DNA of 64,000 nt from an uncultured Actinomycetes bacterium (GTDB taxonomy: Bacteria > Actinomycetota > Thermoleophilia > Gaiellales > JAICJC01), in NCBI GenBank assembly GCA_963843705.1, contig CAWJLQ010000008.1:612144-676143 (forward strand). Direction: 5' to 3'. Both the position numbers and the translations under genes were made by a program. The notes beneath the pieces are model-generated. The model was not told the DNA's origin. It ran no database searches and was given only the letters and a program-made list of their open reading frames with translations. This document shows, piece by piece, positions 625 through 29,522 of the stretch. Position 1 is the stretch's first letter; every line of letters starts with the position of its first letter.

Positions 625-1619
625 GCGCCGAGCCGCTGCTCGAGGTCTCGGGCCTCGTCACCCGCTACCCGATCGAGCGCAGCCTGGCGGCGACCGTCAT
701 GCGCCGCGAGCAGCTGTCCGTCCACGCGGTCGAGGGCGTCGACTTCAGCGTCGCCCCCGGGGAGATGCTGGCGCTGGTCGGCGAGTCCGGCTGCGGCAAG
801 ACCACCACCGCGCAGACCGTGATGCGGATGGTGGAGGCCGATGCCGGCCGGATCATGTTCCGCGGCCAGGACATCTCCCAGCTGTCGCACCGGCGGCTGC
901 GCCCGCTGCGGCGTGAGATGCAGATCATCTACCAGGACCCGTACGAGTCGCTCGACCCCCGCTACCGGGTGCGGGACACCGTCGCCGAGCCGCTCCTGAT
1001 CCACCGGATCGGCTCCTCGAGCCGGGAGCGGGGCGAGCTGGTGCGAAACGCCCTCGTCCAGGCGGGGCTGGAGCCGCCGGAGCTCTACCTCGACCGCTTC
1101 CCGCACGAGCTCTCCGGCGGGCAGCGCCAGCGCGTCGCGATCGCGGCGGCGATGGTGCTGAACCCGAAGCTGCTGCTCGCCGACGAGCCCGTCTCGATGC
1201 TCGACGTCTCGGTGCGTGCCGGCATCCTGCGGCTGCTCGACGAGCTGCGCCACGACGGCCTCGCAATCGTGATGATCACGCACGACCTGTCGACGGCCGC
1301 GCACTTCGCCGACCGGATCGCGGTCATGTACCTGGGCCGGATCGTCGAGGAGGGGCCGGCCCACGAGGTGGTGCGGAACCCGCAGCACCCGTACACCAAG
1401 GCGCTGATCTCGGTCGTGCCGAAGCGCGATCCCCGCGACTCGACGCGGCCCGAGATCCTCACCGGCGAGACGCCGAACCCCGTGTTCATCCCGTCCGGCT
1501 GCCGCTTCCATCCGCGCTGCCCGGTGGCCGAGGAGAGCTGCCTGTCGATCGACCCGGAGCTGCGCCGCCCGAGCGGCGCGACCGACCCGTCGCACCGAGC
1601 CGCATGCATCCTGGCATGA
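621..1619 (+). CDS. ABC transporter ATP-binding protein, oligopeptide/dipeptide type (DppF/OppF-like)
   Basis: Internal ATG 621 of tracked ORF 153..1619 gives MSAEPLLEVSGL. It has Walker A GESGCGKTT, signature LSGGQRQR, Walker B LLLADEPVSMLD and a C-terminal GCRFHPRCP motif. The part of the ORF upstream of 621 is out-of-frame readthrough of the previous gene. Confidence 0.9.
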   Translation: MSAEPLLEVSGLVTRYPIERSLAATVMRREQLSVHAVEGVDFSVAPGEMLALVGESGCGKTTTAQTVMRMVEADAGRIMFRGQDISQLSHRRLRPLRREMQIIYQDPYESLDPRYRVRDTVAEPLLIHRIGSSSRERGELVRNALVQAGLEPPELYLDRFPHELSGGQRQRVAIAAAMVLNPKLLLADEPVSMLDVSVRAGILRLLDELRHDGLAIVMITHDLSTAAHFADRIAVMYLGRIVEEGPAHEVVRNPQHPYTKALISVVPKRDPRDSTRPEILTGETPNPVFIPSGCRFHPRCPVAEESCLSIDPELRRPSGATDPSHRAACILA

Positions 1620-1647
1620 ATAACCGGTGCCAGGCACCGGATATCCA
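1617..1647. repeat. Imperfect copy of the 33-bp palindromic element (core CCGGTGCC-A-GGCACCGG with AT-rich outer arms)
   Basis: ATGAATAACCGGTGCCAGGCACCGGATATCCAG matches the perfect palindrome at 5973-6005 (reverse-complement orientation) at 29 of 33 positions. It starts on the TGA stop of the upstream gene. Confidence 0.8.
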
Positions 1648-1650
1648 GAC

Positions 1651-2583
1651 GTGACGCGCTGGCGTGACATCGCCGGGCCGGTGGGCCTCTTCCCGACCGG
1701 TCCCCGGAACTCGATCACCGATGTGCCCGGGGTGCTCGTCGGCCACGCGCAGGCGGCGAGCGGCGAGGCCACCGGCGTGAGCGTGGTCGTGCCGCCGCGC
1801 CTGCCCGTGCGGGCGGGGACGGACACGACGAACGGCGTCGGGGAGCTGACGAAGAAGCTCGAGATCGACGAGTGGGGGATCATCCAGTCGCCGGTGTGGC
1901 TGTGCGGGACGCACGCCGTCGGCATCGTCTACCACGCCGCCGTGCTCGCGGCCGGCGGCGATCCCGATCACACGGTCATCCCCGTGGTCGGGGAGTGCGA
2001 CGACTCCGACATGGGCGACTCGCGCACCGTCACCGTCGAGGACGCCCACGCGGCGCTCGCAAACGCCGGGGTCGACGCGGCCGAGGGCACGGTCGGGGGC
2101 GGCACCGGCATGACCTGCTTCGACTTCCCGGGCGGGATCGGCACGGCCTCGCGGCTCGTGGACGGGCACACGCTGGGCGTGCTCCTGATGTGCAACTTCG
2201 GCGACCGCGAGCGGCTGACCGCCGGCGGCCTGAGGCTGGAGCCGGCCGAGCCGCCGCCGCCGCCCGAGGGCTCGTGCATCGCTGTCTGCGCGACCGACGC
2301 CCAAATTGGCGCGCAGCAGCTGCGCCGATTGGCGCTGCGGCCGCTGCTCGGCCTTGCCCGGGCCGGGTCGTACGCGTCCAACGGGTCGGGCGAGATCGGG
2401 ATCGCCTTCACCGTCGCCGAGGAGGAGGGGTTTGCGAACGAGCGCCTCTCGCCGCTCTTCGCCGCCGCGTACGAGGCTGCCGAGGAGGCGGTCTACAACT
2501 GCCTGGTCGCCGCCGTGCCCGCTCGGCGGCGGAACGGGAAGATGCAGGACGCCTTCCCGGTGCACCTCGTCACGAGGCGATGA
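1651..2583 (+). CDS. P1/S58 family peptidase (DmpA / L-aminopeptidase-like)
   Basis: Tracked ORF 1627..2583. Segments NSITDVPGVLVGH, GGGTGMTCFDFPGGIGTASR and AVCATDAQI...LARAGS match my memory of the DmpA/BapA family. Start set at in-frame GTG 1651 because codons 1627-1650 are the palindromic repeat. Confidence 0.75.
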   Translation: MTRWRDIAGPVGLFPTGPRNSITDVPGVLVGHAQAASGEATGVSVVVPPRLPVRAGTDTTNGVGELTKKLEIDEWGIIQSPVWLCGTHAVGIVYHAAVLAAGGDPDHTVIPVVGECDDSDMGDSRTVTVEDAHAALANAGVDAAEGTVGGGTGMTCFDFPGGIGTASRLVDGHTLGVLLMCNFGDRERLTAGGLRLEPAEPPPPPEGSCIAVCATDAQIGAQQLRRLALRPLLGLARAGSYASNGSGEIGIAFTVAEEEGFANERLSPLFAAAYEAAEEAVYNCLVAAVPARRRNGKMQDAFPVHLVTRR

Positions 2584-3060: not shown

Positions 3061-3465
3061 ATGGAGGGGATGAAGGTCGAGCTGCGGGTGCGGCTCTCCG
3101 CGGCAGACGTGCACTACGGCGGCAACCTCGTCGACGGCGCCCACGGTCTCGAGCTGTTCGGCGACATCGTCACCGAGCTGGCCGTCCGCACCGACGGCGA
3201 CGAGGGGCTCTTCGCCGGCTACGAGAAGGTCGAGTTCCTGGCGCCGCTCTACGGCGGCGACTTCGTACGGGCCACGGGCACGATTGTGCGGATGGGGAAC
3301 ACCAGCCGCACCGTCGACCTGGAGCTCTGGAAGGAGATCAGCGCCCGCCCCGACGTCGGGGAGTCGGCGGCAGACGTGCTCGATCCCCCCGTGCTCGCGA
3401 CCCGAGCCCGCGGCACCTACGTCGTCAGGCGCGAGCATCACCGCGGGCCGGGCGGCCGCGGCTGA
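3061..3465 (+). CDS. Hotdog-fold protein (resembles the 3-aminobutyryl-CoA ammonia-lyase type)
   Basis: ATG 3061 inside tracked ORF 2920..3465 gives MEGMKVELRV. AADVHYGGNLVDGAHGLELFGD, VEFLAPLYGGDF and GNTSRT resemble that hotdog subfamily from memory. No search was run. Confidence 0.6.
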   Translation: MEGMKVELRVRLSAADVHYGGNLVDGAHGLELFGDIVTELAVRTDGDEGLFAGYEKVEFLAPLYGGDFVRATGTIVRMGNTSRTVDLELWKEISARPDVGESAADVLDPPVLATRARGTYVVRREHHRGPGGRG

Positions 3466-3469
3466 GCGG

Positions 3470-3521
3470 GGGGACGGTCCCCTTCGAGAGAGCGGGGCCT
3501 GGCCCCGAGGGGCCGGGCCCC
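3470..3521. repeat. Cluster of three GC-rich palindromes between convergent genes (probable bidirectional terminator; GGGGCC-N-GGCCCC family)
   Basis: GGGGACGGTCCCC (3470-3482), GGGGCCTGGCCCC (3494-3506) and GGGGCCGGGCCCC (3509-3521). The same motif and its AGAGC left flank recur at 20235 and 31619. Confidence 0.7.
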
Positions 3522-3578
3522 ATCCCAGCCGCCCGTCGTCGACGACGATCGCGGTCGCCGCCATGCCGCCGAGGCGCG

Positions 3579-4277: not shown

Positions 4278-4305
4278 TTGGCGCGCAGCGGGGCGTTGCT
4301 ATACT
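4278..4305 (+). promoter_or_regulatory. Candidate sigma-70-type promoter for the infC leader
   Basis: TTGGCG (4278-4283), a 16-nt spacer, then TATACT (4300-4305). Judged by eye only. Confidence 0.3.
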
Positions 4306-4311
4306 GAACGC

Positions 4312-4429
4312 CTGGAAAAGCAGAGGCATCACGCCCCTCACCCGTCCGGCCTGGAGCCGGCGGGTTCAACCGAATTGTTCGGAAGCCGCCCGCAGGGCGG
4401 GTTATGGGTGCCGAGTGCGCCCATTTTTT
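4312..4429 (+). promoter_or_regulatory. Structured 5' leader of the infC-rpmI-rplT operon ending in an intrinsic terminator (putative attenuator)
   Basis: Three hairpins: CCGGC-ctgga-GCCGG (4346-4360), CCGAA-ttg-TTCGG (4370-4382) and CCGCCC-gcag-GGGCGG (4386-4401). They are followed by the terminator hairpin. It lies directly upstream of infC, where an L20-responsive leader is known in Firmicutes. Confidence 0.4.
4404..4429 (+). terminator. Intrinsic terminator-like hairpin with a T6 run
   Basis: ATGGGTGC-cgagt-GCGCCCAT forms an 8-bp stem including one G-T pair, followed by TTTTTT. T-runs are rare in this GC-rich sequence. Confidence 0.55.
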
Positions 4430-4484
4430 CGTGTCGACGAGAGGAGCTCCACCGGTTGATGATGATCGTGACTAGGCGCAGGTC

Positions 4485-5289: not shown

Positions 5290-5649
5290 ATGGCACGCGT
5301 CAAGCGCAGCGTCAGCGCGAAGAAGAAGCGCCGTGAGGTGCTGGAGCAGGCCAAGGGCTACCGCGGCCTGAAGAAGAACACCTACCGGAAGGCGAAGGAG
5401 CAGGTGATGAAGTCGCTCACCTACGCCTACCGCGACCGCCGGGTGCGCAAGCGCGACTTCCGCCGCCTGTGGATCATCCGCATCAACGCCGGTGCCCGCA
5501 GCCACGGCCTCTCCTACAACCAGTTCATGCACGGGCTGCGCAAGGCCGAGATCGAGCTCGACCGCAAGGTTCTGGCCGACATCGCCGTTTCGGATCCGAA
5601 GGCCTTCCAGGCCCTCGCCGAGACTGCCAAGGCTGCGCTTGCCGCATGA
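5290..5649 (+). CDS. rplT: 50S ribosomal protein L20
   Basis: [26 protein letters not shown]...[14 protein letters not shown] is canonical L20. Confidence 0.97.
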
Positions 5650-5653
5650 CGAC

Positions 5654-6454
5654 GTGCCGGCTCTCGAGCCGATCACGTCCCGCGCCAACGCGCGGCTGAA
5701 GCACGCGCGCAAGCTCCAGGCCCGCCGTCATCGCCGTGTCCTCGGCCAGTTCCTGGCCGAAGGTGAGGATCTGGTTGAGGAGGCGCTTGCGGCGGGGATC
5801 CTGCCGGTCGAGACGCTGATCGCCGCCGACCGGCCGCCCGACGAGGGGCTGGTCGCGCGGCTGGCCCGCGGCGGCCCGGTGCACGCGGTCCGCGACTCGC
5901 TCCTGGCCGAGGCCGGCGGCCTCGGCCATCCGGCCCGCGTGATCGGGATCTACGCGATCGACAGCCTGCCGCGTGAATATCCGGTGCCTGGCACCGGATA
6001 TTCACCGCTGGCGGTGTATCTGCACAGGGTGATCGACCCGGGCAACGTCGGCACGGTCGTGCGCGCGTGCGGGGCGCTCGGGCCGGCGCGGCTCGTGCTC
6101 TCGCCGGGTTGCTCCGACCCGCTGGCGGGGAAGGGTGTGCGCGCGTCGATGGGGGCGGTCTTCCGCGTCCCGATCGCCACGGGCGCCGACCTGCCCGCCG
6201 GCGCGACGCGGATCGCGCTCGTGGCCGGGGCGGCGACGCCGATCTGGGAGCTCGACCTGACCGGCCCCGCGACGCTCGTCGTCGGCGCGGAGCGGCACGG
6301 ACTGCCAGACGAGATCGTGGGGGCGTGCGACGCGGTCTGCGCCATCCCCCAGGCGGCCGGAGCCGAGTCGCTGAACGCCGCCCAGGCGGCCTCGCTGGCG
6401 CTCTACGAGGCGGTCCGGCAGCGGGCTCAGGCCGCCAGCCGGAACGGCGGGTAG
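5654..6454 (+). CDS. TrmH/SpoU family RNA 2'-O-methyltransferase carrying an in-frame palindromic insertion
   Basis: GTG 5654 inside tracked ORF 5492..6454. Has the SpoU motifs DPGNVGTVVRACGALG, LVVGAERHGL and AESLNAAQAASLALYE. It occupies the position after rplT that the YsgA-type methyltransferase takes in Bacillus. Confidence 0.85.
   Translation: MPALEPITSRANARLKHARKLQARRHRRVLGQFLAEGEDLVEEALAAGILPVETLIAADRPPDEGLVARLARGGPVHAVRDSLLAEAGGLGHPARVIGIYAIDSLPREYPVPGTGYSPLAVYLHRVIDPGNVGTVVRACGALGPARLVLSPGCSDPLAGKGVRASMGAVFRVPIATGADLPAGATRIALVAGAATPIWELDLTGPATLVVGAERHGLPDEIVGACDAVCAIPQAAGAESLNAAQAASLALYEAVRQRAQAASRNGG
5973..6005. repeat. 33-bp perfect palindrome inside the methyltransferase CDS
   Basis: GTGAATATCCGGTGCC-T-GGCACCGGATATTCAC has 16-nt arms and a 1-nt centre. 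It is 33 nt (11 codons) and is read through in frame as (R)EYPVPGTGYS(P). Confidence 0.9.
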
Positions 6455-20234: not shown

Positions 20235-20318
20235 GGGGCCTGGCCCCGGTGTACCGGGGCCAGGCCCCAGGGCGACGGGATCCGTTACACCGGGGCCAGG
20301 CCCCAGGGCGACGGGATC
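20235..20318. repeat. GGGGCC(T/A)GGCCCC palindromes (3 copies), including a 30-nt exact direct repeat with a 36-nt period
   Basis: Palindromes at 20235-20247, 20256-20268 and 20292-20304. ACCGGGGCCAGGCCCCAGGGCGACGGGATC occurs at 20253-20282 and again at 20289-20318. The cluster lies between convergent genes. Confidence 0.85.
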
Positions 20319-22139: not shown

Positions 22140-23129
22140 TTACAGCCCGCACTCGGCCAGCAACGAGCGCGCCGCGGCCTCGATCTTGGCTTCGAGCGGG
22201 AGCGCCGCCAGCTCGAGCGGCTTGGAGTAGGGCATCGGCACCTCGGCCTGGCCGACCCGCTCCACCGGTGCGTCGAGATCGTCGAAGCACACGCGCTGGA
22301 GGCGGGCGGCCAGCTCTGCGCCGACGCCGTAGGTCGACCAGCCCTCCTCGGCCACGAGCACGCGGTTCGTCTTGCGCACCGACTCCGCCACGGTGTCGAC
22401 GTCGAGCGGGCGCAGCGAGCGCAGGTCGATCACCTCGGCTGAGAGCCCGTCGTGGGCGAGCCGGTCGGCTACGCGCAGCGCCCGCTGCACCGTGTAGGAG
22501 TGCGCGACGATGGTGAGGTCGGCGCCCTCACGGGCGACCGCGGCGCGGCCCAGCGGGATGGCGCCGTCGCCGTCGTCGGGCAGCGGGCCGGTCAGGTTGT
22601 AGAGCACGAGGTTCTCGCAGAAGAGCACCGGGTCGTCGTCGCGGATGGCCGTCTTCAGCATCCCGTAGGCGTCCGCCGGGGTCGCGGGCGCGACCACCTT
22701 GAGGCCGGGACAGCCCGCGAACCAGACCTCGAGCGACTGCGAGTGCTGGGCGGTCAGCTGGGCGCCGGCGCCGCCGGGGCTGCGGATGACGAGCGGCACG
22801 CCGACGGTGCCGCCGAACATGTACCGGATCTTGGCCGCGTGGTTCACGACCTGGTCCATCGCGACCAGGATGAAGTTGATCGTCATGATCTCGATCACCG
22901 GCCGCAGGCCCATCATGGCCGCGCCGATGCCGGCGCCGATGAAGCCCTCCTCGGAGATCGGCGTCTCGCGGACGCGCACGGGGCCGTACTTCTGCCACAG
23001 GCCGGCCGTGACCTTGTAGGAGCCCTCGAAGCGGCCGATCTCCTCGCCCATCAGGAAGACGTCGGGGTCGCGGCCGAGCTCCTCGTCGAGCGCGAGGCGG
23101 AGCGCCTCGCGGTACGTCACGTCGGCCAT
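22140..23129 (-). CDS. 2-oxoacid (pyruvate) dehydrogenase E1 beta subunit
   Basis: MADVTYREALRLALDEEL...MGEEIG...RVRETPISEEGFIGAGIGAAMMGLRP is typical E1 beta. The first roughly 85 codons of tracked ORF 22140..23384 are not used. Confidence 0.92.
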   Translation of the reverse strand: MADVTYREALRLALDEELGRDPDVFLMGEEIGRFEGSYKVTAGLWQKYGPVRVRETPISEEGFIGAGIGAAMMGLRPVIEIMTINFILVAMDQVVNHAAKIRYMFGGTVGVPLVIRSPGGAGAQLTAQHSQSLEVWFAGCPGLKVVAPATPADAYGMLKTAIRDDDPVLFCENLVLYNLTGPLPDDGDGAIPLGRAAVAREGADLTIVAHSYTVQRALRVADRLAHDGLSAEVIDLRSLRPLDVDTVAESVRKTNRVLVAEEGWSTYGVGAELAARLQRVCFDDLDAPVERVGQAEVPMPYSKPLELAALPLEAKIEAAARSLLAECGL

Positions 23130-24193
23130 GTCTGGCCGTCTCCGCGCTCGCCGAAGGGCGCCCCGGCGCGCATGCGCGCGAACTGCTCGCCCGAGCTCGG
23201 GTCGCCGTAGAGGTGGTCGTACAGCCCTTCCCGGGGCGGAAACGAGGCCGACAGCGCCCGGTCGATGGCGTCCTTCACGGTCGTCGAGACCTCCTGCCAG
23301 ATCGCGTCGAGGTCCGCGCCCGTCGCCAGGCCGCGCTCGCCGAGCAGCAGGCCGTAGCGGGTGATCGGGTCGCGCTCGCGCCACGAGCGCACCTCGTCCG
23401 GCGTGCGGTACACCTTGCCCGCGTCGGCGACCGAGTGGCCGCGGTAGCGGTAGGTGATCGTCTCCAGCAGCGCCGGCCGTCGCTCCTCACGCGCCTGGCG
23501 GAGCAGCCGGTCGGCCGCCTCGCGCACGGCGAGGATGTCGTTTCCGTCCACCTGCTCTCCGTGCATGCGATAGGCGGCGGCCCGTTTCCACAGGTCGGGC
23601 TCGGCGTTCGACTGGGCGACCGAGGTGCCCATCCCGTACTGGTTGTTGATCGCCTGGAAGACGATCGGCAGCTCCCACAGCGACGCCAGGTTGAGGGCCT
23701 CGTGGAACGACCCCGTCGCGACCGCCCCGTCGCCGAACTGGCACAGGACGGCGGACTGTTGGTCACGGTAGGACATGGCGAGCGCCGTCCCCGCCGCGAT
23801 CGGCAGGTGGGCGCCGACGATGCCCCAGCCGCCGTAGAAGTGCCGCTCCACATCGAGCAGGTGCATCGACCCGCCGCGGCCGTGGGCGACGCCGGTCTCC
23901 TTGCCGAAGAGCTCCGCCATCACCGCGGCCGCCGGGCTGCCGACGGCCAGCGCCGTGGCGTGGTCGCGGTAGCTCGCGTAGAGCGCGTCGCCCGGCTCGA
24001 GCGCGTCGATCGACCCCACCGACGACGCCTCCTCGCCGATGGCGAGGTGGCAGTAGCCGCCGATGCGGGCGCGGGTGTACTGCTCCTCGGTGCGCTCCTC
24101 GAACCGGCGGATCAGCGCCATCTGCCGGAAGAGGGCGAGCGCGTGCCCGCGGTCGTCCAGAACCGCGGCATGGGTCTCGGCGGGCTTCGCCAT
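23117..24193 (-). CDS. 2-oxoacid (pyruvate) dehydrogenase E1 alpha subunit
   Basis: Has the ThDP motif GDGAVATGSFHEALNLASLWELPIVFQAINN and YRYRGHSVAD. Start is ATG 24193. It overlaps the E1 beta start by 13 nt. Confidence 0.92.
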   Translation of the reverse strand: MAKPAETHAAVLDDRGHALALFRQMALIRRFEERTEEQYTRARIGGYCHLAIGEEASSVGSIDALEPGDALYASYRDHATALAVGSPAAAVMAELFGKETGVAHGRGGSMHLLDVERHFYGGWGIVGAHLPIAAGTALAMSYRDQQSAVLCQFGDGAVATGSFHEALNLASLWELPIVFQAINNQYGMGTSVAQSNAEPDLWKRAAAYRMHGEQVDGNDILAVREAADRLLRQAREERRPALLETITYRYRGHSVADAGKVYRTPDEVRSWRERDPITRYGLLLGERGLATGADLDAIWQEVSTTVKDAIDRALSASFPPREGLYDHLYGDPSSGEQFARMRAGAPFGERGDGQTWPT

Positions 24194-24238
24194 GTCCCCG
24201 AACCTTAGCCCGGCCGAACGGGTAGTCTCCGAGCCGCG

Positions 24239-24493
24239 ATGGCGACCGCGGTGACCGTGCCAAGGCTGGGGGAGGAGGCCGCCCCCGCCGTCCTGATCAG
24301 GTTCCTGGTGGAGCCCGGGGCACCGGTGCGCCGGGGCGACCCGCTGTATGAGCTGGACACCGACAAGGTGACCCAGGAGGTCGAGGCCGAGGCCGACGGC
24401 GTGCTGCTGGAGGTGGTCGGCACGCCGGGGGTCGAGTATCCGCCCGGTGCGACGATCGCCTGGATCGGCGAGCCCGGCGAGCCGGTCGCGTGA
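24239..24493 (+). CDS. Free-standing lipoyl/biotinyl attachment domain protein (84 aa)
   Basis: It is a single lipoyl-type domain: VTVPRLGE...GDPLYELDTDKVTQEVEAEADGVLLEV, with the DK lysine in the usual hairpin position. Only 45 bp separate its ATG from the divergent E1 alpha ATG. Confidence 0.75.
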   Translation: MATAVTVPRLGEEAAPAVLIRFLVEPGAPVRRGDPLYELDTDKVTQEVEAEADGVLLEVVGTPGVEYPPGATIAWIGEPGEPVA

Positions 24494-25143
24494 GCGACGC
24501 CTTCCGCATCGCCCATCTCGACGATCTGGAGCGGCTCGAGGCGGCCGGCGTGCTCTACCGGCCGATCCGGCGCGCGCTCGGCGTGCGGGCATTCGGGGTG
24601 AACGCCTACACGGCCGCGAGGGCCGGCGACCAGGTGATCGAGCAGCACAGCGAGGGCGCCGGGGGCGGCTCCGGCCGCCAGGAGGAGCTCTACGTGGTGC
24701 TCGCCGGCCGCGCCGAGTTCACCGTTGCGGACGAGACCGTCGACGCGCCCGCCGGCACGATGGTGTTCGTCGGGGACGTGACGGCCAGGCGGGGCGCGGT
24801 CGCGACGGCCGACGACACCACCGTGCTCGTCGTCGGCGGCCCCGCCGACCAGCCCATCCCCACCTCGCCGTTCGAGTACTGGTTCGCGGCCGAGCCGGCC
24901 TACAGGGCGGGCGACTACGACCGCGCCGTCGAGATCGCGTCGGCCGGGCTCGCAGAGTGGCCGGAGCACGGGATGCTGAACTACCAGCTCGCGTGCTACC
25001 ACGCCCTCGCCGGCCGCAGGGAGCAGGCGCTGGAGCGGCTCGCGATCGCGGTGGCGGACGACCCCGGCACGCGTGCGTTCGCGCAGGACGACGAGGATCT
25101 CGACGCCATCCGCGCCGACCCCGCGTTCCCCGCGCCGCCCTGA
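24490..25143 (+). CDS. Cupin-domain protein with a helical (TPR-like) C-terminal half
   Basis: GTG 24490 overlaps the upstream stop (GTGA). A cupin-like core (VIEQHSE...EELYVVLAGRAEFTV...GTMVFV) is followed by helical repeats (YRAGDYDRAVEIASAGL...NYQLACYHALAG). Confidence 0.6.
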   Translation: MSDAFRIAHLDDLERLEAAGVLYRPIRRALGVRAFGVNAYTAARAGDQVIEQHSEGAGGGSGRQEELYVVLAGRAEFTVADETVDAPAGTMVFVGDVTARRGAVATADDTTVLVVGGPADQPIPTSPFEYWFAAEPAYRAGDYDRAVEIASAGLAEWPEHGMLNYQLACYHALAGRREQALERLAIAVADDPGTRAFAQDDEDLDAIRADPAFPAPP

Positions 25144-25183
25144 ACTAGGATGCCGGGCGGAAGCGAGCCGGAGGAGCGAGTCG

Positions 25184-26605
25184 ATGGAGTGTGACGTCGC
25201 CGTCCTGGGCGGCGGGCCGGGCGGGTACCCGGCCGCGATCCGGGCGGCCCAGCTGGGCGCGAACGTGGTGATGATCGAGCAGGCCCGCGTCGGCGGGACC
25301 TGCATCACGGTCGGCTGCATCCCGACCAAGACGTGGGTGCAGACCGCCCACGCGCTCAAGGAATCGCGCGAGACCTTCGCCCAGATCGGTGTCCGCGTCG
25401 CCGAGGCCGAGCTCGACTTCGGCCAGGCCCAGCAGAACAAGACCGGGATCGTGGACGGCCTCGTGACCGGGATCACCGGCGTCGTCAAGGCGAACGGGGT
25501 CACGATCGTGAACGGCCGCGGCGAGTTCGCCGGCCCGAACACGATCGCGGTCGAGGGCGGGGAGGACGTGACGTTCAAGTCGGCGGTGATCGCCACCGGC
25601 TCGCATCCGCTGCGCCCGCCGGTGAAGGGCATCGACGGGCCGAGGTGCGTCGACTCGACCGGACTGCTGGCGATCGGGGAGGTGCCGCGGCGGCTCGTGA
25701 TCCTCGGCGGCGGCGTGATCGGCGTCGAGTTCGCGTCGATCTTCCGCCACTTCGGCAGCGAGGTGACGATCGTCGAGATGCTGGCGCATCTGATCCCGAT
25801 GGAGGACGAGGACGCCTCGAAGGAGCTCGAGCGGTCGTTCAAGCGCCGCGGGATCGGCATGCACCTGGGCGCGCGCGCGACCGAGGTGGCCGAGTCCGGC
25901 GACGCCGTGACCCTGCGCTTCGAGGGCGCCGACGGCAAGCCCGGCGAGATCGAGGCCGACCTCGTCCTGGTCGCGACCGGCCGCGGTCCGAGCGTCGAGG
26001 GCGTGGGCCTGCAGAAGGCGGGCGTCGACTTCGACCCCCGCCGCGGCGTGATCGTCGACCGCCACATGCGCACGAACGTCGCGCACATCTACGCCGCCGG
26101 CGACGTCGCCGGCGTCTACCAGCTGGCGCACACGTCATTCCGCGAGGGCGAGGTGGCGGCCGAGAACGCGCTCGGCCACGACGCCGAGATGGACTACGCG
26201 GCCGTCCCCCGGTGCGTCTACACCGACCCGGAGGTGGCCGCCGTCGGCCTGACCGAGGCGCAGGCGCGCGAGCGTCACGGAGACGACGTCGTCGTGGGCC
26301 GGTTCCCGTTCTCGGCGTCGGCGCGCGCGCAGATGTACGGCGAGAAGGCCGGCTTCGCCAAGACGATCTCCGAGACCCGCTACGGCGAGCTGCTCGGGAT
26401 CGTGATCGTCGGCGTGCAGGCGACCGAGCTCGTGAACGCCGGAGTCGTCGGCATCAGCGCCGAGTCCACGATCGACACCCTCGCCGACTCGATGGCGGCG
26501 CACCCGACCCTGGCGGAGGCGCTGAAGGAGGCCGCGCTCGTGTCGCTCGGCCGCCCGATCCACCTGCCCCCGCCGCGCCGGCGGGCCAAGGCCGCCGCCC
26601 GGTGA
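25184..26605 (+). CDS. lpdA: Dihydrolipoyl dehydrogenase (E3)
   Basis: ATG 25184 has GGAGGAG upstream. It has an FAD motif (VLGGGPGGYPAAIRAA), a redox disulfide (GGTCITVGCIPTK), an NAD motif (ILGGGVIGVEF) and a C-terminal HAHPTLAEALKEA. Confidence 0.92.
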   Translation: MECDVAVLGGGPGGYPAAIRAAQLGANVVMIEQARVGGTCITVGCIPTKTWVQTAHALKESRETFAQIGVRVAEAELDFGQAQQNKTGIVDGLVTGITGVVKANGVTIVNGRGEFAGPNTIAVEGGEDVTFKSAVIATGSHPLRPPVKGIDGPRCVDSTGLLAIGEVPRRLVILGGGVIGVEFASIFRHFGSEVTIVEMLAHLIPMEDEDASKELERSFKRRGIGMHLGARATEVAESGDAVTLRFEGADGKPGEIEADLVLVATGRGPSVEGVGLQKAGVDFDPRRGVIVDRHMRTNVAHIYAAGDVAGVYQLAHTSFREGEVAAENALGHDAEMDYAAVPRCVYTDPEVAAVGLTEAQARERHGDDVVVGRFPFSASARAQMYGEKAGFAKTISETRYGELLGIVIVGVQATELVNAGVVGISAESTIDTLADSMAAHPTLAEALKEAALVSLGRPIHLPPPRRRAKAAAR

Positions 26606-28305
26606 GCGGCAGCGCCGACGCCTCCCGCTTCCTGATCCCGACGCTCAAGGACGATCCGGCCGACGCGGAGGCGATCAGTCACAAGCTGCTGGTCCGGGGC
26701 GGATTCGTGCGCCAGGTCGGCTCGGGGCTCTACACGTACCTCCCGCTGGGCTGGCGCGTGCTCCGAAACACGATGCAGGTCATCCGCGAGGAGATGGACA
26801 CGATCGGCCTCGAGATGCTGATGCCGGTGCTGCAGCCGGCCGAGCTGTGGGAGGCGACCGACCGCTACGGCATCGACGTGCTGTTCAAGCTCGACGGCTC
26901 CGGCGACAAGCGCTACGTGCTCGCCATCACACACGAGGAGTGCGTCACCTGGCACGCCGCCCGGGAGATCCGCTCCTACCGCGAGCTCCCGCAGATCTGG
27001 TACCACCAGCAGACGAAGGAGCGCGACGAGCCGCGGCCCCGGGGCGGGATCCTGCGCACGCGCGAGTTCATCATGAAGGACTCCTACAGCTTCGACCGCG
27101 ACCGGGCCGGGCTGGAGGAGTCGTACGCCAAGCACCGCGACGTCTACATCCGCATCTTCGACCGCTGCGGCCTGGAGGCGTGGCCGGTCGAGGCGGACGT
27201 CGGCATGATGGGCGGCTACGGCGGCGAGGAGTTCGTCGCCCCCAGCCCGAACGGCGAGGCCGAGCTCGTTCGCTGCTCGAACTGCGACTACGCCGCCAAC
27301 GTCGAGGTGGGGCGCTCGGCCCCGCGCCCGCCGCAGTTCCCGCCGCGCCTGGACGCGCCGCAGGAGGTGGAGACCCCGGGGGTGACGACCATCGAGGGGC
27401 TGGCGGAGTTCCTGGGCGTCGACCCGGCGGCGACGGCCAAGGCGATGCCGATCGTGGCCGGCGGGAAGGTCGTCCTGGCCCTCGTGCGCGGCGACCACCG
27501 CCTGCACGAGCTGAAGACCCGGAGCGCGCTCGGCGCGGAGTTCCGGGCGGCGCATCCGGACGAGATCCGGGCGGCGTTCGGCGCCGACCCGGGCTCGATC
27601 GGGCCGGTGGGGACGGACGTCCGCATCATCGCCGACGAGTCGCTGCGCGACGGCCAGTTCGTCGGCGGCGCCAACCGCACCGGGTGGCACCTGCGCGGCG
27701 TCGAGGCGGGCCGCGACTACCGGGCGGAGTTCGCCGACCTGCGCGAGGTCTCCGCCGGCGACGCGTGCGCCGTGTGCGGCAACGGCGTGCTCAGCATCGA
27801 GCCGGCGATCGAGGTCGGGCACATCTTCAAGCTGGGCACGCGCTACTCCGTGCCGCTGGACGCGACCTATCTCGACGAGGAGGGCCGGGAGCACCCGATC
27901 GAGATGGGCTCCTACGGCATCGGCCCCGCCCGGGTCTCGGCCGCCGTGGTGGAGCAGCACCATGACGACAAGGGGATCACGTGGCCGGCCGGCCTGGCGC
28001 CGTTCCACGTGCACATGGTCGTGATCGGGGGGCCGGACGATCCGCAGTTCCCGATCGCCCGCGAGATCCAGGCGGAGATCGAGCGCGACGGTCTCACCGT
28101 CCTCTTCGACGACCGCACGGCCAGCCCCGGCTCGCGCTTCGCCGACGCCGAGCTGATCGGCATGCCGGCGCGGGTCACCGTCGGCAAGCGCACGGCGACC
28201 GACGGCACGGCCGACGTCCAGATCCGGCGTGGGCGCGAGCAGCGGTCGGTGCCGGTGGCCGACGTCGGGGCCGCGGTGCGCGCCGCCGTCGGCGCCGCTC
28301 AGTGA
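26602..28305 (+). CDS. proS: Proline--tRNA ligase (bacterial type with INS editing domain)
   Basis: GTG 26602 overlaps the lpdA stop (GTGA). Class II motifs (FIMKDSYSF, GHIFKLGTRYS, GSYGIGPARV) and an inserted editing domain (LVRGDHRLHELK) are present. Confidence 0.95.
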   Translation: MSGSADASRFLIPTLKDDPADAEAISHKLLVRGGFVRQVGSGLYTYLPLGWRVLRNTMQVIREEMDTIGLEMLMPVLQPAELWEATDRYGIDVLFKLDGSGDKRYVLAITHEECVTWHAAREIRSYRELPQIWYHQQTKERDEPRPRGGILRTREFIMKDSYSFDRDRAGLEESYAKHRDVYIRIFDRCGLEAWPVEADVGMMGGYGGEEFVAPSPNGEAELVRCSNCDYAANVEVGRSAPRPPQFPPRLDAPQEVETPGVTTIEGLAEFLGVDPAATAKAMPIVAGGKVVLALVRGDHRLHELKTRSALGAEFRAAHPDEIRAAFGADPGSIGPVGTDVRIIADESLRDGQFVGGANRTGWHLRGVEAGRDYRAEFADLREVSAGDACAVCGNGVLSIEPAIEVGHIFKLGTRYSVPLDATYLDEEGREHPIEMGSYGIGPARVSAAVVEQHHDDKGITWPAGLAPFHVHMVVIGGPDDPQFPIAREIQAEIERDGLTVLFDDRTASPGSRFADAELIGMPARVTVGKRTATDGTADVQIRRGREQRSVPVADVGAAVRAAVGAAQ

Positions 28306-28807
28306 GCGCCGCGGCCGCGGTCGAGCCCGAGTGACTCAAGCGCTTGGCGCAGGCGCGGCGGCAGGTTCGCGGCGCGCCACCGGCCCAGGGCGAAGGCACG
28401 CGTCGTGGTGAGACGCCCTCCGGTGCCGACCACGCCGTTGGAATTCGTGGCGCCGAGCGCCTGCGACAGGGCCGGGCTCTTGGCCGCCCCGGCCCCCGCG
28501 GAGCCGGGCGTGCGCTGGGTCGGCGCGATGGTTGCACCTGCGACCTCGGTGGCGGTACCCCCACCGCCGCCGACGCTGGGCGAGCTCTGGAGGCCGTGCC
28601 CGATGCCCACGACCAGCGCCGCGAAGGCGCATATGACCGCGGCGACGGCGCCCAGCGGCCGCCAGGAGCGGCGTCCGCGCGGCCGGATCCGGCGCGGCCG
28701 CGGCTCGGCCCGCACCTGCAGCATGACGTCGGCGCGCAGCCGCTCGGGCGCCTGCGCTCCGGCCTCGGCCCGCAGGCGGGCGGTGATCTCGTCGTGGCGC
28801 TCGTCGC

Positions 28808-28811
<4 letters not shown>
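28299..28811 (-). CDS. Putative anti-sigma factor / single-pass membrane protein
   Basis: GTG 28811 overlaps the ECF sigma stop (GTGA). It has one TM segment (WRPLGAVAAVICAFAALVVGIG) and a Gly/Ala-rich extracytoplasmic tail. The function is inferred from position only. Confidence 0.5.
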
Positions 28812-29395
<584 letters not shown>

Positions 29396-29448
29396 CCCTC
29401 TTCTGACTCCCGGGGGCGGCTCCGGGTTCCCGATATACTCGACGTCCG

Positions 29449-29522
29449 CGGGGCGTGGCGCAGTCTGGTAGCGCACCCGGCTGGGGGCCGGGCGGTCGGA
29501 GGTTCGAATCCTCTCGCCCCGA
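29449..29522 (+). tRNA. tRNA-Pro (anticodon GGG)
   Basis: Folded by hand into a 74-nt cloverleaf. Acceptor CGGGGCG/CGCCCCG, D stem GCGC/GCGC, anticodon stem CCCGG/CCGGG with loop CTGGGGG, T arm GGAGG-TTCGAAT-CCTCT, discriminator A. No encoded CCA. Confidence 0.92.

Follow-up and report, generated by a model that had tools for sequence, protein, structure and literature searches.

Among the short palindromic repeats of bacteria are the repetitive extragenic palindromic (REP) elements of Proteobacteria, also called palindromic units (PUs), which include super-families tagged with GTAG or with CGTC (Di Nocera et al. 2013, PMC3733652; Nunvar et al. 2010, PMC2817692). The termini of GTAG and CGTC REPs supply stop codons to the flanking open reading frames (ORFs), REPs between convergent genes lie at most 20 bp from both ORF ends, and a variable number of REPs reside wholly within ORFs, among them the Rickettsia palindromic elements (RPEs) RPE-4 and RPE-6, which have been equated with CGTC REPs (PMC3733652). 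In E. coli, REPs at most 15 nt from a stop codon have been tied to translational control (PMC12306157). Here we describe a repeat of similar design in a 64,000-nt stretch of DNA (the window) from an uncultured Actinomycetes bacterium of the order Gaiellales (assembly GCA_963843705.1, contig CAWJLQ010000008.1). The element in question is a 33-bp palindrome that lies within a gene for a TrmH-family RNA methyltransferase. It is probably a copy of a REP-like family that is confined to a Gaiellales/Thermoleophilia lineage of soil bacteria, in which it is dispersed and found mostly at the 3' ends of genes.

The palindrome, GTGAATATCCGGTGCC-T-GGCACCGGATATTCAC, is found at positions 5973-6005 exactly as an initial annotation of the window had quoted it: the two 16-nt arms are 100% complementary and enclose a single central T. 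Folded alone, this copy (copy A) is predicted to form a strong hairpin both as DNA (-18.5 kcal/mol, z -7.5) and as RNA (-28.2 kcal/mol, z -6.6), with z around -7. The same annotation pointed to a second copy at 1617-1647, identical at 29 of 33 positions. The second copy (copy B) is real, but it differs from copy A at two arm positions and in the loop, which gives an identity of 28/31; its predicted RNA fold, also taken alone, is -14.4 kcal/mol. Rfam has no family at either copy. The window has two occurrences of the 17-nt core, CCGGTGCCNGGCACCGG, at 1624-1640 and 5981-5997, where 0.23 are expected, the 31-mer with up to three mismatches occurs twice against 0.00 expected in shuffled sequence, and a profile of the family (nhmmer) run over the 64 kb finds copies A and B and no third. 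These numbers bear on the simplest alternative, namely that copy A arose by chance or evolved in place and is unrelated to the copy at 1617. Intrastrand template switching can create and self-correct palindromes, and such an event in the linker of the methyltransferase is one form this alternative could take. It is nevertheless refuted by the family data, and we give it practically no weight: besides the shuffled expectation, there are dozens of copies with a 31-nt consensus at unrelated loci, and copy A brings the AT-rich codons GAA, TAT and TCA into a gene whose GC content at third codon positions (GC3) is 0.94-0.98 on the two flanks.

The family unit is 31 nt long and reads TGAATAT-CCGGTGCC-W-GGCACCGG-ATATTCA: an 8-bp GC stem sits between AT-rich ends, and each strand begins with TGA. 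The head consensus TGAAT often follows G or CG, and the palindrome of copy A extends one pair past the unit. Across the family, flank positions -2 to 0 pair with positions 32 to 34 only as often as expected for independent bases; thus the unit is 31 nt and the outer G...C pair does not characterise the family, and a longer palindrome of the form CG-TGAAT..ATTCA-CG was rejected on the same count. Most family copies are mismatched at pair 7/25, and the perfect form seen in the TrmH gene of the window is a minority state. Asymmetric sub-variants, such as TGCATAA-core(loop A)-ATATTCA, recur at different loci, which argues for copying from variant masters and not for convergence.

The distribution of the family was examined in two collections. 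An exact-pattern scan of GTDB species genomes for the core with adjoining AT returned at least 118 loci, mostly chance matches to the core in unrelated taxa; among the matches listed, about 26 copies carry the full TGAATAT-core-ATATTCA, including the flanks beyond the search pattern, and these come from metagenome-assembled genomes (MAGs) of Thermoleophilia, Gaiellales or 'Actinomycetes'. A scan of JGI metagenome contigs with ATAT plus the core gave 50 contigs in a complete listing, nearly all from soil or rhizosphere and nearly all with the full 31-nt unit; 12 of them represent the TrmH site. Together the two scans yield at least 57 distinct sequences at a minimum of about 35 distinct genomic sites, and the site and stop-codon counts given below refer to these roughly 35 sites, that is, to the genome matches listed and the full metagenome listing. 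Several MAGs have three to eight copies among the matches listed, and the 50 metagenome contigs suggest that a genome has between a handful and some tens of copies with a perfect core. The proposal that the palindrome is a dispersed element is thus borne out by further copies in related genomes and metagenomes, and also by presence/absence differences at orthologous sites. It is worth mentioning that the core CCGGTGCC-W-GGCACCGG also stands at the middle of further repeat families, whose palindromic flanks are different: CCTGACGTACAT-core-ATGTACGTCAGG in Ilumatobacteraceae (loci L050, L055, L070 and L115), and ACAAAT-core-ATTTGT, within a repeat of about 100 nt, in another Gaiellales MAG, ant_bin.151 (L043, L048, L107).

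Table 1. Positions of the two repeat copies and of the genes they touch, numbered from the first nucleotide of the window.
Feature	Positions	Strand	Details
oppF-like ABC transporter ATPase	621-1619 (start approximate)	+	Pfam ABC_tran and oligo_HPY
Copy B of the repeat	1617-1647	.	TGAATAACCGGTGCC-A-GGCACCGGATATCCA; TGA at 1617-1619 terminates the upstream oppF-like gene
Peptidase S58 (DmpA-like)	1651-2583	+	PF03576
TrmH/SpoU-family RNA 2'-O-methyltransferase	5639-6454 (start 5639 or 5654)	+	Pfam PF22435 and PF00588
Linker codons R-E-Y-P-V-P-G-T-G-Y-S-P	5972-6007	+	Between the N-terminal substrate-binding domain and SpoU strand 1
Copy A of the 31-nt palindromic repeat	5974-6004	.	TGAATATCCGGTGCC-T-GGCACCGGATATTCA; family-profile match E 9e-15

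The most striking property of the family is its relation to stop codons. Coding frames around the sites were called from GC3, which is about 0.9-1.0 in the genes of these genomes, and several were checked with Pfam. In 16 of the ~35 sites the adjacent gene has its stop codon within the element, either as the terminal TGA (positions 1-3) or as a TAA or TGA at positions 5-7 in the variants TGAATAA and TGCATGA; random positions in the same loci score as stop-in-element in 0.7% of cases (binomial P ~6e-26, n=33). Both convergent genes stop within the element at two loci (L075 and L133), and at a third (L173) the stop codon of the second gene abuts its far end. A further 17 sites or so lie clearly between genes, some as tandem pairs (L009, L079), and altogether about 33 of 35 sites are extragenic or overlap a stop codon only. 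The earlier picture of a small element sitting within coding sequence therefore holds for only two of the ~35 sites; intragenic copies do exist, but the typical place is the 3' end of a gene. Where the element supplies the stop, the native end of the protein is preserved, as seen for the oppF-like gene and for an oxygenase that terminates at the last position of its Pfam profile. The data thus show a hairpin repeat that is dispersed, has been propagated by copying and is strongly associated with stop codons.

Copy B is a good illustration of this association. The oppF-like protein ends in ...ACILA* in relatives with or without the element, and the start of the downstream peptidase, GTG ACG CGC TGG (VTRWRDI), is also kept in relatives; its GTG at 1651 lies 32 nt downstream of the TGA of copy B. 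At the corresponding junction of L123 the element is absent and stop and start overlap as GTGA, the window having 35 extra nt. Another relative (L120) has a degraded copy of the element at this junction, two others (L010, L124) have short, unrelated spacers, and L119 has a hairpin of another type, GGGGAC-G-GTCCCC.

Other loci add to the picture of filled and empty sites. The locus L017 is syntenic with positions 22645-29522 of the window at ~85% identity; positions 25134-25145 of the window are an empty site, and at the same gene end L017 has ~150 bp (2396-2548) with three hairpin modules. This insert opens with a stop-supplying TGAATAA, continues with two GGGGTCAGACCCC-centred hairpins and closes with the 31-nt element, resembling the bacterial interspersed mosaic elements (BIMEs), and part of the mosaic is common to L023 and L057. 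The hairpin GGGGTCNGACCCC, which adjoins the element in all three loci, is absent from the window. At a GcvT|HNH|MFS locus, an HNH_2 'putative restriction endonuclease' gene of lower GC3 (L111, 4682-5664) is bracketed exactly by two copies in one MAG; it is a resident gene and does not encode a transposase. In L127 (2150-2318) two copies lie 138 bp apart, with a 107-bp remnant of the HNH gene; L135 (357-387) and L158 (2708-2738) have one hybrid copy and lack the HNH gene; and in L176 and L177 the HNH gene occupies the same position and copies are missing. The series looks like insertions followed by loss of the HNH gene through recombination between repeat copies. The HNH endonuclease was considered as a mobiliser of the repeat and rejected, since its 295-aa homologues start after the element and the same position is element-free in L176 and L177; its N-terminus in L111 was likewise rejected as a third intragenic case because the homologues start after the element. 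In L152 (1467-2410) and L175 (2619-3562), two copies ~910 bp apart frame an ORF for a GNAT-like acetyltransferase.

The placement at gene ends brings up a different explanation, in which the repeat would be a functional cis-element under selection, either a portable gene-end cassette or a site for a dimeric protein, with the TrmH copy conserved for its DNA or RNA structure. In the cassette version, stops in two frames on both strands would be combined with a hairpin that acts as a bidirectional terminator or mRNA stabiliser. The sites are indeed positionally conserved across species, the copy number appears low, and copy B scores in a simple search for terminators, though on the minus strand alone, where the GC stem is followed by the tail TTATTCAT; copy A is not flagged. 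The genes next to the copies are functionally unrelated, however, and the copies lie at 3' ends or within genes and not in promoters. The internal mismatch at pair 7/25 in most copies also speaks against the explanation, while the presence/absence differences and the asymmetric sub-variants indicate copying. As to a dimeric protein, the TGAAT/ATTCA half-sites appear to resemble those of ARG boxes; the idea of an ArgR site was dropped, as the window has no canonical ARG boxes and the neighbouring genes are unrelated. On balance, we regard a selected cis-element as unlikely. One particular form of it, a hitherto undescribed actinobacterial gene-end cassette that is not driven by a REP-associated tyrosine transposase (RAYT), in which a protein would recognise the 17-nt core common to this family and the other Gaiellales and Ilumatobacteraceae repeats and would target it to stop codons, and the TrmH palindrome would be actively maintained, appears slightly less plausible still. 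If it were true, the element would be retained for its stop codon and 3' hairpin, and the perfect palindrome in TrmH would be held by selection or by hairpin-templated correction instead of being a passive relic.

The copy in the TrmH gene has a well-resolved history. The gene belongs to the cluster infC-rpmI-rplT-trmH-(DUF4389, methyltransferase)-pheS-pheT, which is syntenic in L119-L125. Its product is 100% identical to a 271-aa protein (P0001), has the SpoU_methylase domain PF00588 (E 2e-27) and the MRM3-like substrate-binding domain PF22435 (E 3e-11), and has 5kzk, 4x3l and 1x7o as relatives in the PDB. Homologues of named origin place the organism of the window in the Gaiellales (Thermoleophilia). 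The linker codons directly precede PLAVYLHRVIDPGN, and the palindrome lies nine codons upstream of the IDPGN motif, so that its placement in a TrmH-family linker before DPGN, as first proposed, is supported by domains and motif alike. The palindrome had further been described as a unit of exactly 11 codons; it is 33 nt long and in frame, but not aligned with the codons, as its first base is codon position 2. Each strand of the element has two open frames (EYPVPGTGYS and NIRC(L/Q)APDI) and one closed by TGA. With two of three frames open, an insertion can survive within a gene provided that it falls in an open frame and in a tolerant loop.

Among the best 120 homologue clusters, the linker has 12 residues of the (R/H)EYPVPGTGYSP type in 34 clusters, seven residues (xRxxxAD) in 55, and four, six or eight residues in 12. 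The TrmH copy therefore arose once, when 33 nt took the place of ~18 nt in the ancestor of the clade, and is not a clean insertion of 11 codons. The suggestion that the peptide is an insertion of roughly 11 residues is thus right in that the linker is extended relative to element-free orthologues, but the net gain is five residues. Distant orthologues have neither the peptide nor the palindrome. The same element is read in the same codons in the window and in 16 orthologous loci, in an open frame with GC3 of 0.93-1.0 on both sides. The exact peptide EYPVPGTGYS is kept in 14 of the 34 twelve-residue clusters, and a decay series leads from EYSVPGTKYS, AYPVPGTHHS and DYQVPGAGYS to QASPDGAGGTS and QAAAAGAAGAS. 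The segment has been translated as EYPVPGTGYS since the ancestor of the TrmH clade; in some lineages, that of the window included, it has remained a perfect palindrome, and in others it has decayed toward GC-rich Ala and Gly codons. Consistent with translation, position 7 is T in 17 of 17 TrmH copies, an A at this place making an in-frame TAA; in the family at large it is A in 22 of 57 sequences. The AlphaFold2 model (pLDDT 89.6) shows residues 105-118, which include the linker residues 108-117, as a coil between the domains, its internal pLDDT being lowest (~70) in the block 111-120. At this point the linkers of solved TrmH-family structures are of about the same length or longer. The TrmH copy probably has no function beyond a longer linker.

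Whether selection holds the TrmH palindrome as a nucleic acid structure can be judged from how well it is conserved. TrmH orthologues found with the search pattern are 93-100% identical in the element and only 58-71% identical at flanking third codon positions. This figure, however, is inflated by ascertainment, as the pattern used demands a perfect core. For the same reason the twelve metagenome contigs with the TrmH site, mostly perfect palindromes, are unusable as evidence of selection. Three orthologues found through their protein are 80-90% identical in the element, with 9-12 of 15 pairs, and the loss of the exact peptide in most twelve-residue clusters, down to QAAAAGAAGAS, is also at odds with a conserved structure. 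Locus by locus, pairing is perfect in the window and in L010 (flanks 82% identical), 12/15 in L119 and 9/15 in both L123 and L121. An observation on the side of a maintained structure is the TrmH orthologue in L143 (930-960), in which both arms are altered symmetrically (TGCATAT..ATATGCA), so that 15/15 pairs are retained while two residues change (E to A and S to A). Selection could account for this one case, but so could hairpin-templated correction or conversion from a TGCAT-type copy.

A second intragenic copy was found in a different gene. This gene, in L005, encodes a shikimate dehydrogenase (aroE; SDH_C domain found); the element falls in its C-terminal half, just after the NATPxGM loop, and is read in the same frame as the TrmH copy (HEYPVPGTGYSS, EYPVPGTGYS). 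Solved AroE structures have 6-7 fewer residues after this loop than L005. The likeness to Rickettsia palindromic elements that was drawn for the TrmH linker therefore extends to an independent loop in aroE, with the same reading frame in both.

How such a repeat might spread is suggested by its structure. Its size, its hairpin, the lack of target duplications and the BIME-like clustering lead us to infer propagation through a hairpin or single-strand intermediate that would be handled in trans by an HUH/Y1 enzyme, either a RAYT or an IS200/IS605-like transposase. The TGA head could serve as target or cleavage motif, as GTAG does in classical REPs, and the hairpin at gene ends may, from its position and shape, act as a 3' structure of the mRNA, be it a stabiliser or a weak bidirectional terminator. 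The alternative source of mobility is a cut-and-paste transposase, with the repeat as a minimal miniature inverted-repeat transposable element (MITE) of a DDE transposon, made of two 15-bp terminal inverted repeats and a 1-bp spacer. Many DDE elements have TG...CA ends, and the unit starts with TG, ends with CA and is an inverted repeat of two equal halves; in addition, a half-element (TGMATAACCG...) and a full element flank ~120 bp of other hairpins in L017 and L057. Target-site duplications are missing at the 57 distinct copies, with flank repeats at chance level, and no larger autonomous element with these ends was seen in any locus examined. There is also no family copy in plasmid or viral collections, the plasmids giving one 20-nt chance match only and the viral contigs none, and a plasmid or phage vector was accordingly set aside. 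A MITE origin is, in our opinion, highly improbable.

Several points weigh against a REP-like family as well. When every ORF in 588 kb (the window and 87 loci) was compared by phmmer with the single query sequence of E. coli RayT, no match fell below E 0.7; this is a weak negative. The family consensus has neither a GTAG nor a CGTC head. The copy number looks low, with 50 metagenome contigs of which 12 are the TrmH site, and classical REPs reach more than 100 per genome. Many sites are common to related species and are no demonstration of recent mobility, the target-site duplications are missing as described above, and the change in TrmH is a replacement (+33/-18 nt) and not a clean insertion. 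We nevertheless favour the REP-like family as the most probable account of the palindrome.

The window has further hairpins that deserve a brief mention. Between convergent thioesterase and phosphoribosyltransferase genes (3465-3530) there are three small GC hairpins, GGGGAC-G-GTCCCC (3470-3482), GGGGCC-T-GGCCCC (3495-3507) and GGGGCCGGGCCCC. The first type is the one at the oppF/S58 junction of L119, and two copies of it follow the HNH gene of L177; apparently it represents a second family of hairpin repeats in these genomes. At 20235-20304, a perfect palindrome with 16-nt arms, GGGGCCTGGCCCCGGT/ACCGGGGCCAGGCCCC, is followed by a repeat of ACCGGGGCCAGGCCCCAGGGCGACGGGATC (70-nt self-match, 82%), and this region has GGGGCCTGGCCCC in common with the hairpin at 3495. 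Upstream of infC-rpmI-rplT there are a promoter-like site (4278-4305) and a terminator-like hairpin (4404-4424), and positions 4312-4434 match the Rfam family of the ribosomal protein L20 leader below its threshold (29.3 bits against a gathering score of 58.7, E 0.015). The region 4278-4434 may be a divergent L20 autoregulatory leader.

With these results, a REP-like family is added to the Gaiellales/Thermoleophilia, a poorly studied and mostly uncultured actinobacterial order, and no description combining Gaiellales with palindromic repeats was found in the literature searched. The behaviour of the repeat is already known in outline, since stop-codon donation and intragenic REPs have been described (PMC3733652). 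New are the host lineage, the family as such, which has a TGA head and is almost perfectly symmetric, and the well-resolved history of the insertion in TrmH. The linker series, across dozens of orthologues, follows a palindromic repeat as it becomes protein, from the perfect hairpin to the ameliorated Ala/Gly linker. In annotation, knowledge of the 31-mer helps to place gene ends and to avoid false ORFs that start at ATGAATAT. The strong link between element and stop codon also raises two questions: do such repeats target stop codons, and are they retained because termination of the genes has become dependent on them?

Compared with known systems, the Gaiellales repeat is closest to the REPs. 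It falls in the same 20-40 nt class of stem-loops, at 31 nt with up to 15 pairs, and like REPs it is dispersed, has a shared consensus and lies mostly just downstream of genes or between convergent genes; the stop-codon-donating termini, the occasional translated intragenic copies and the BIME-like hairpin arrays, as in L017, complete the resemblance. It differs in its head, which is (G)TGA and not GTAG or CGTC, in a palindrome that is almost fully symmetric, and in its actinobacterial host. With the RPEs it has in common that palindromic repeats reside in frame in protein genes, where they are tolerated in surface or linker regions and add a short peptide. RPE-1, however, is 100-150 bp long and adds 30-50 residues, against 31-33 nt and 10-11 residues here, the sequences and host phyla are unrelated, and intragenic copies are a small minority in the Gaiellales family. 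A bidirectional intrinsic terminator would also have a GC-rich stem-loop between an A-rich and a T-rich tract, right after stops and between convergent genes; the T tract of the element (ATATTCA) is weak, though, and can pair with the upstream arm, and terminators do not occur as an identical 31-mer at many loci. Within the actinobacteria, the mycobacterial interspersed repetitive units (MIRUs) of Mycobacterium tuberculosis lie between operon genes and overlap or provide the flanking stop and start codons; they are 40-100 bp long, tandemly repeated and not simple perfect hairpins. Copy B of the window resembles them in its position between genes and in its supply of a stop codon.

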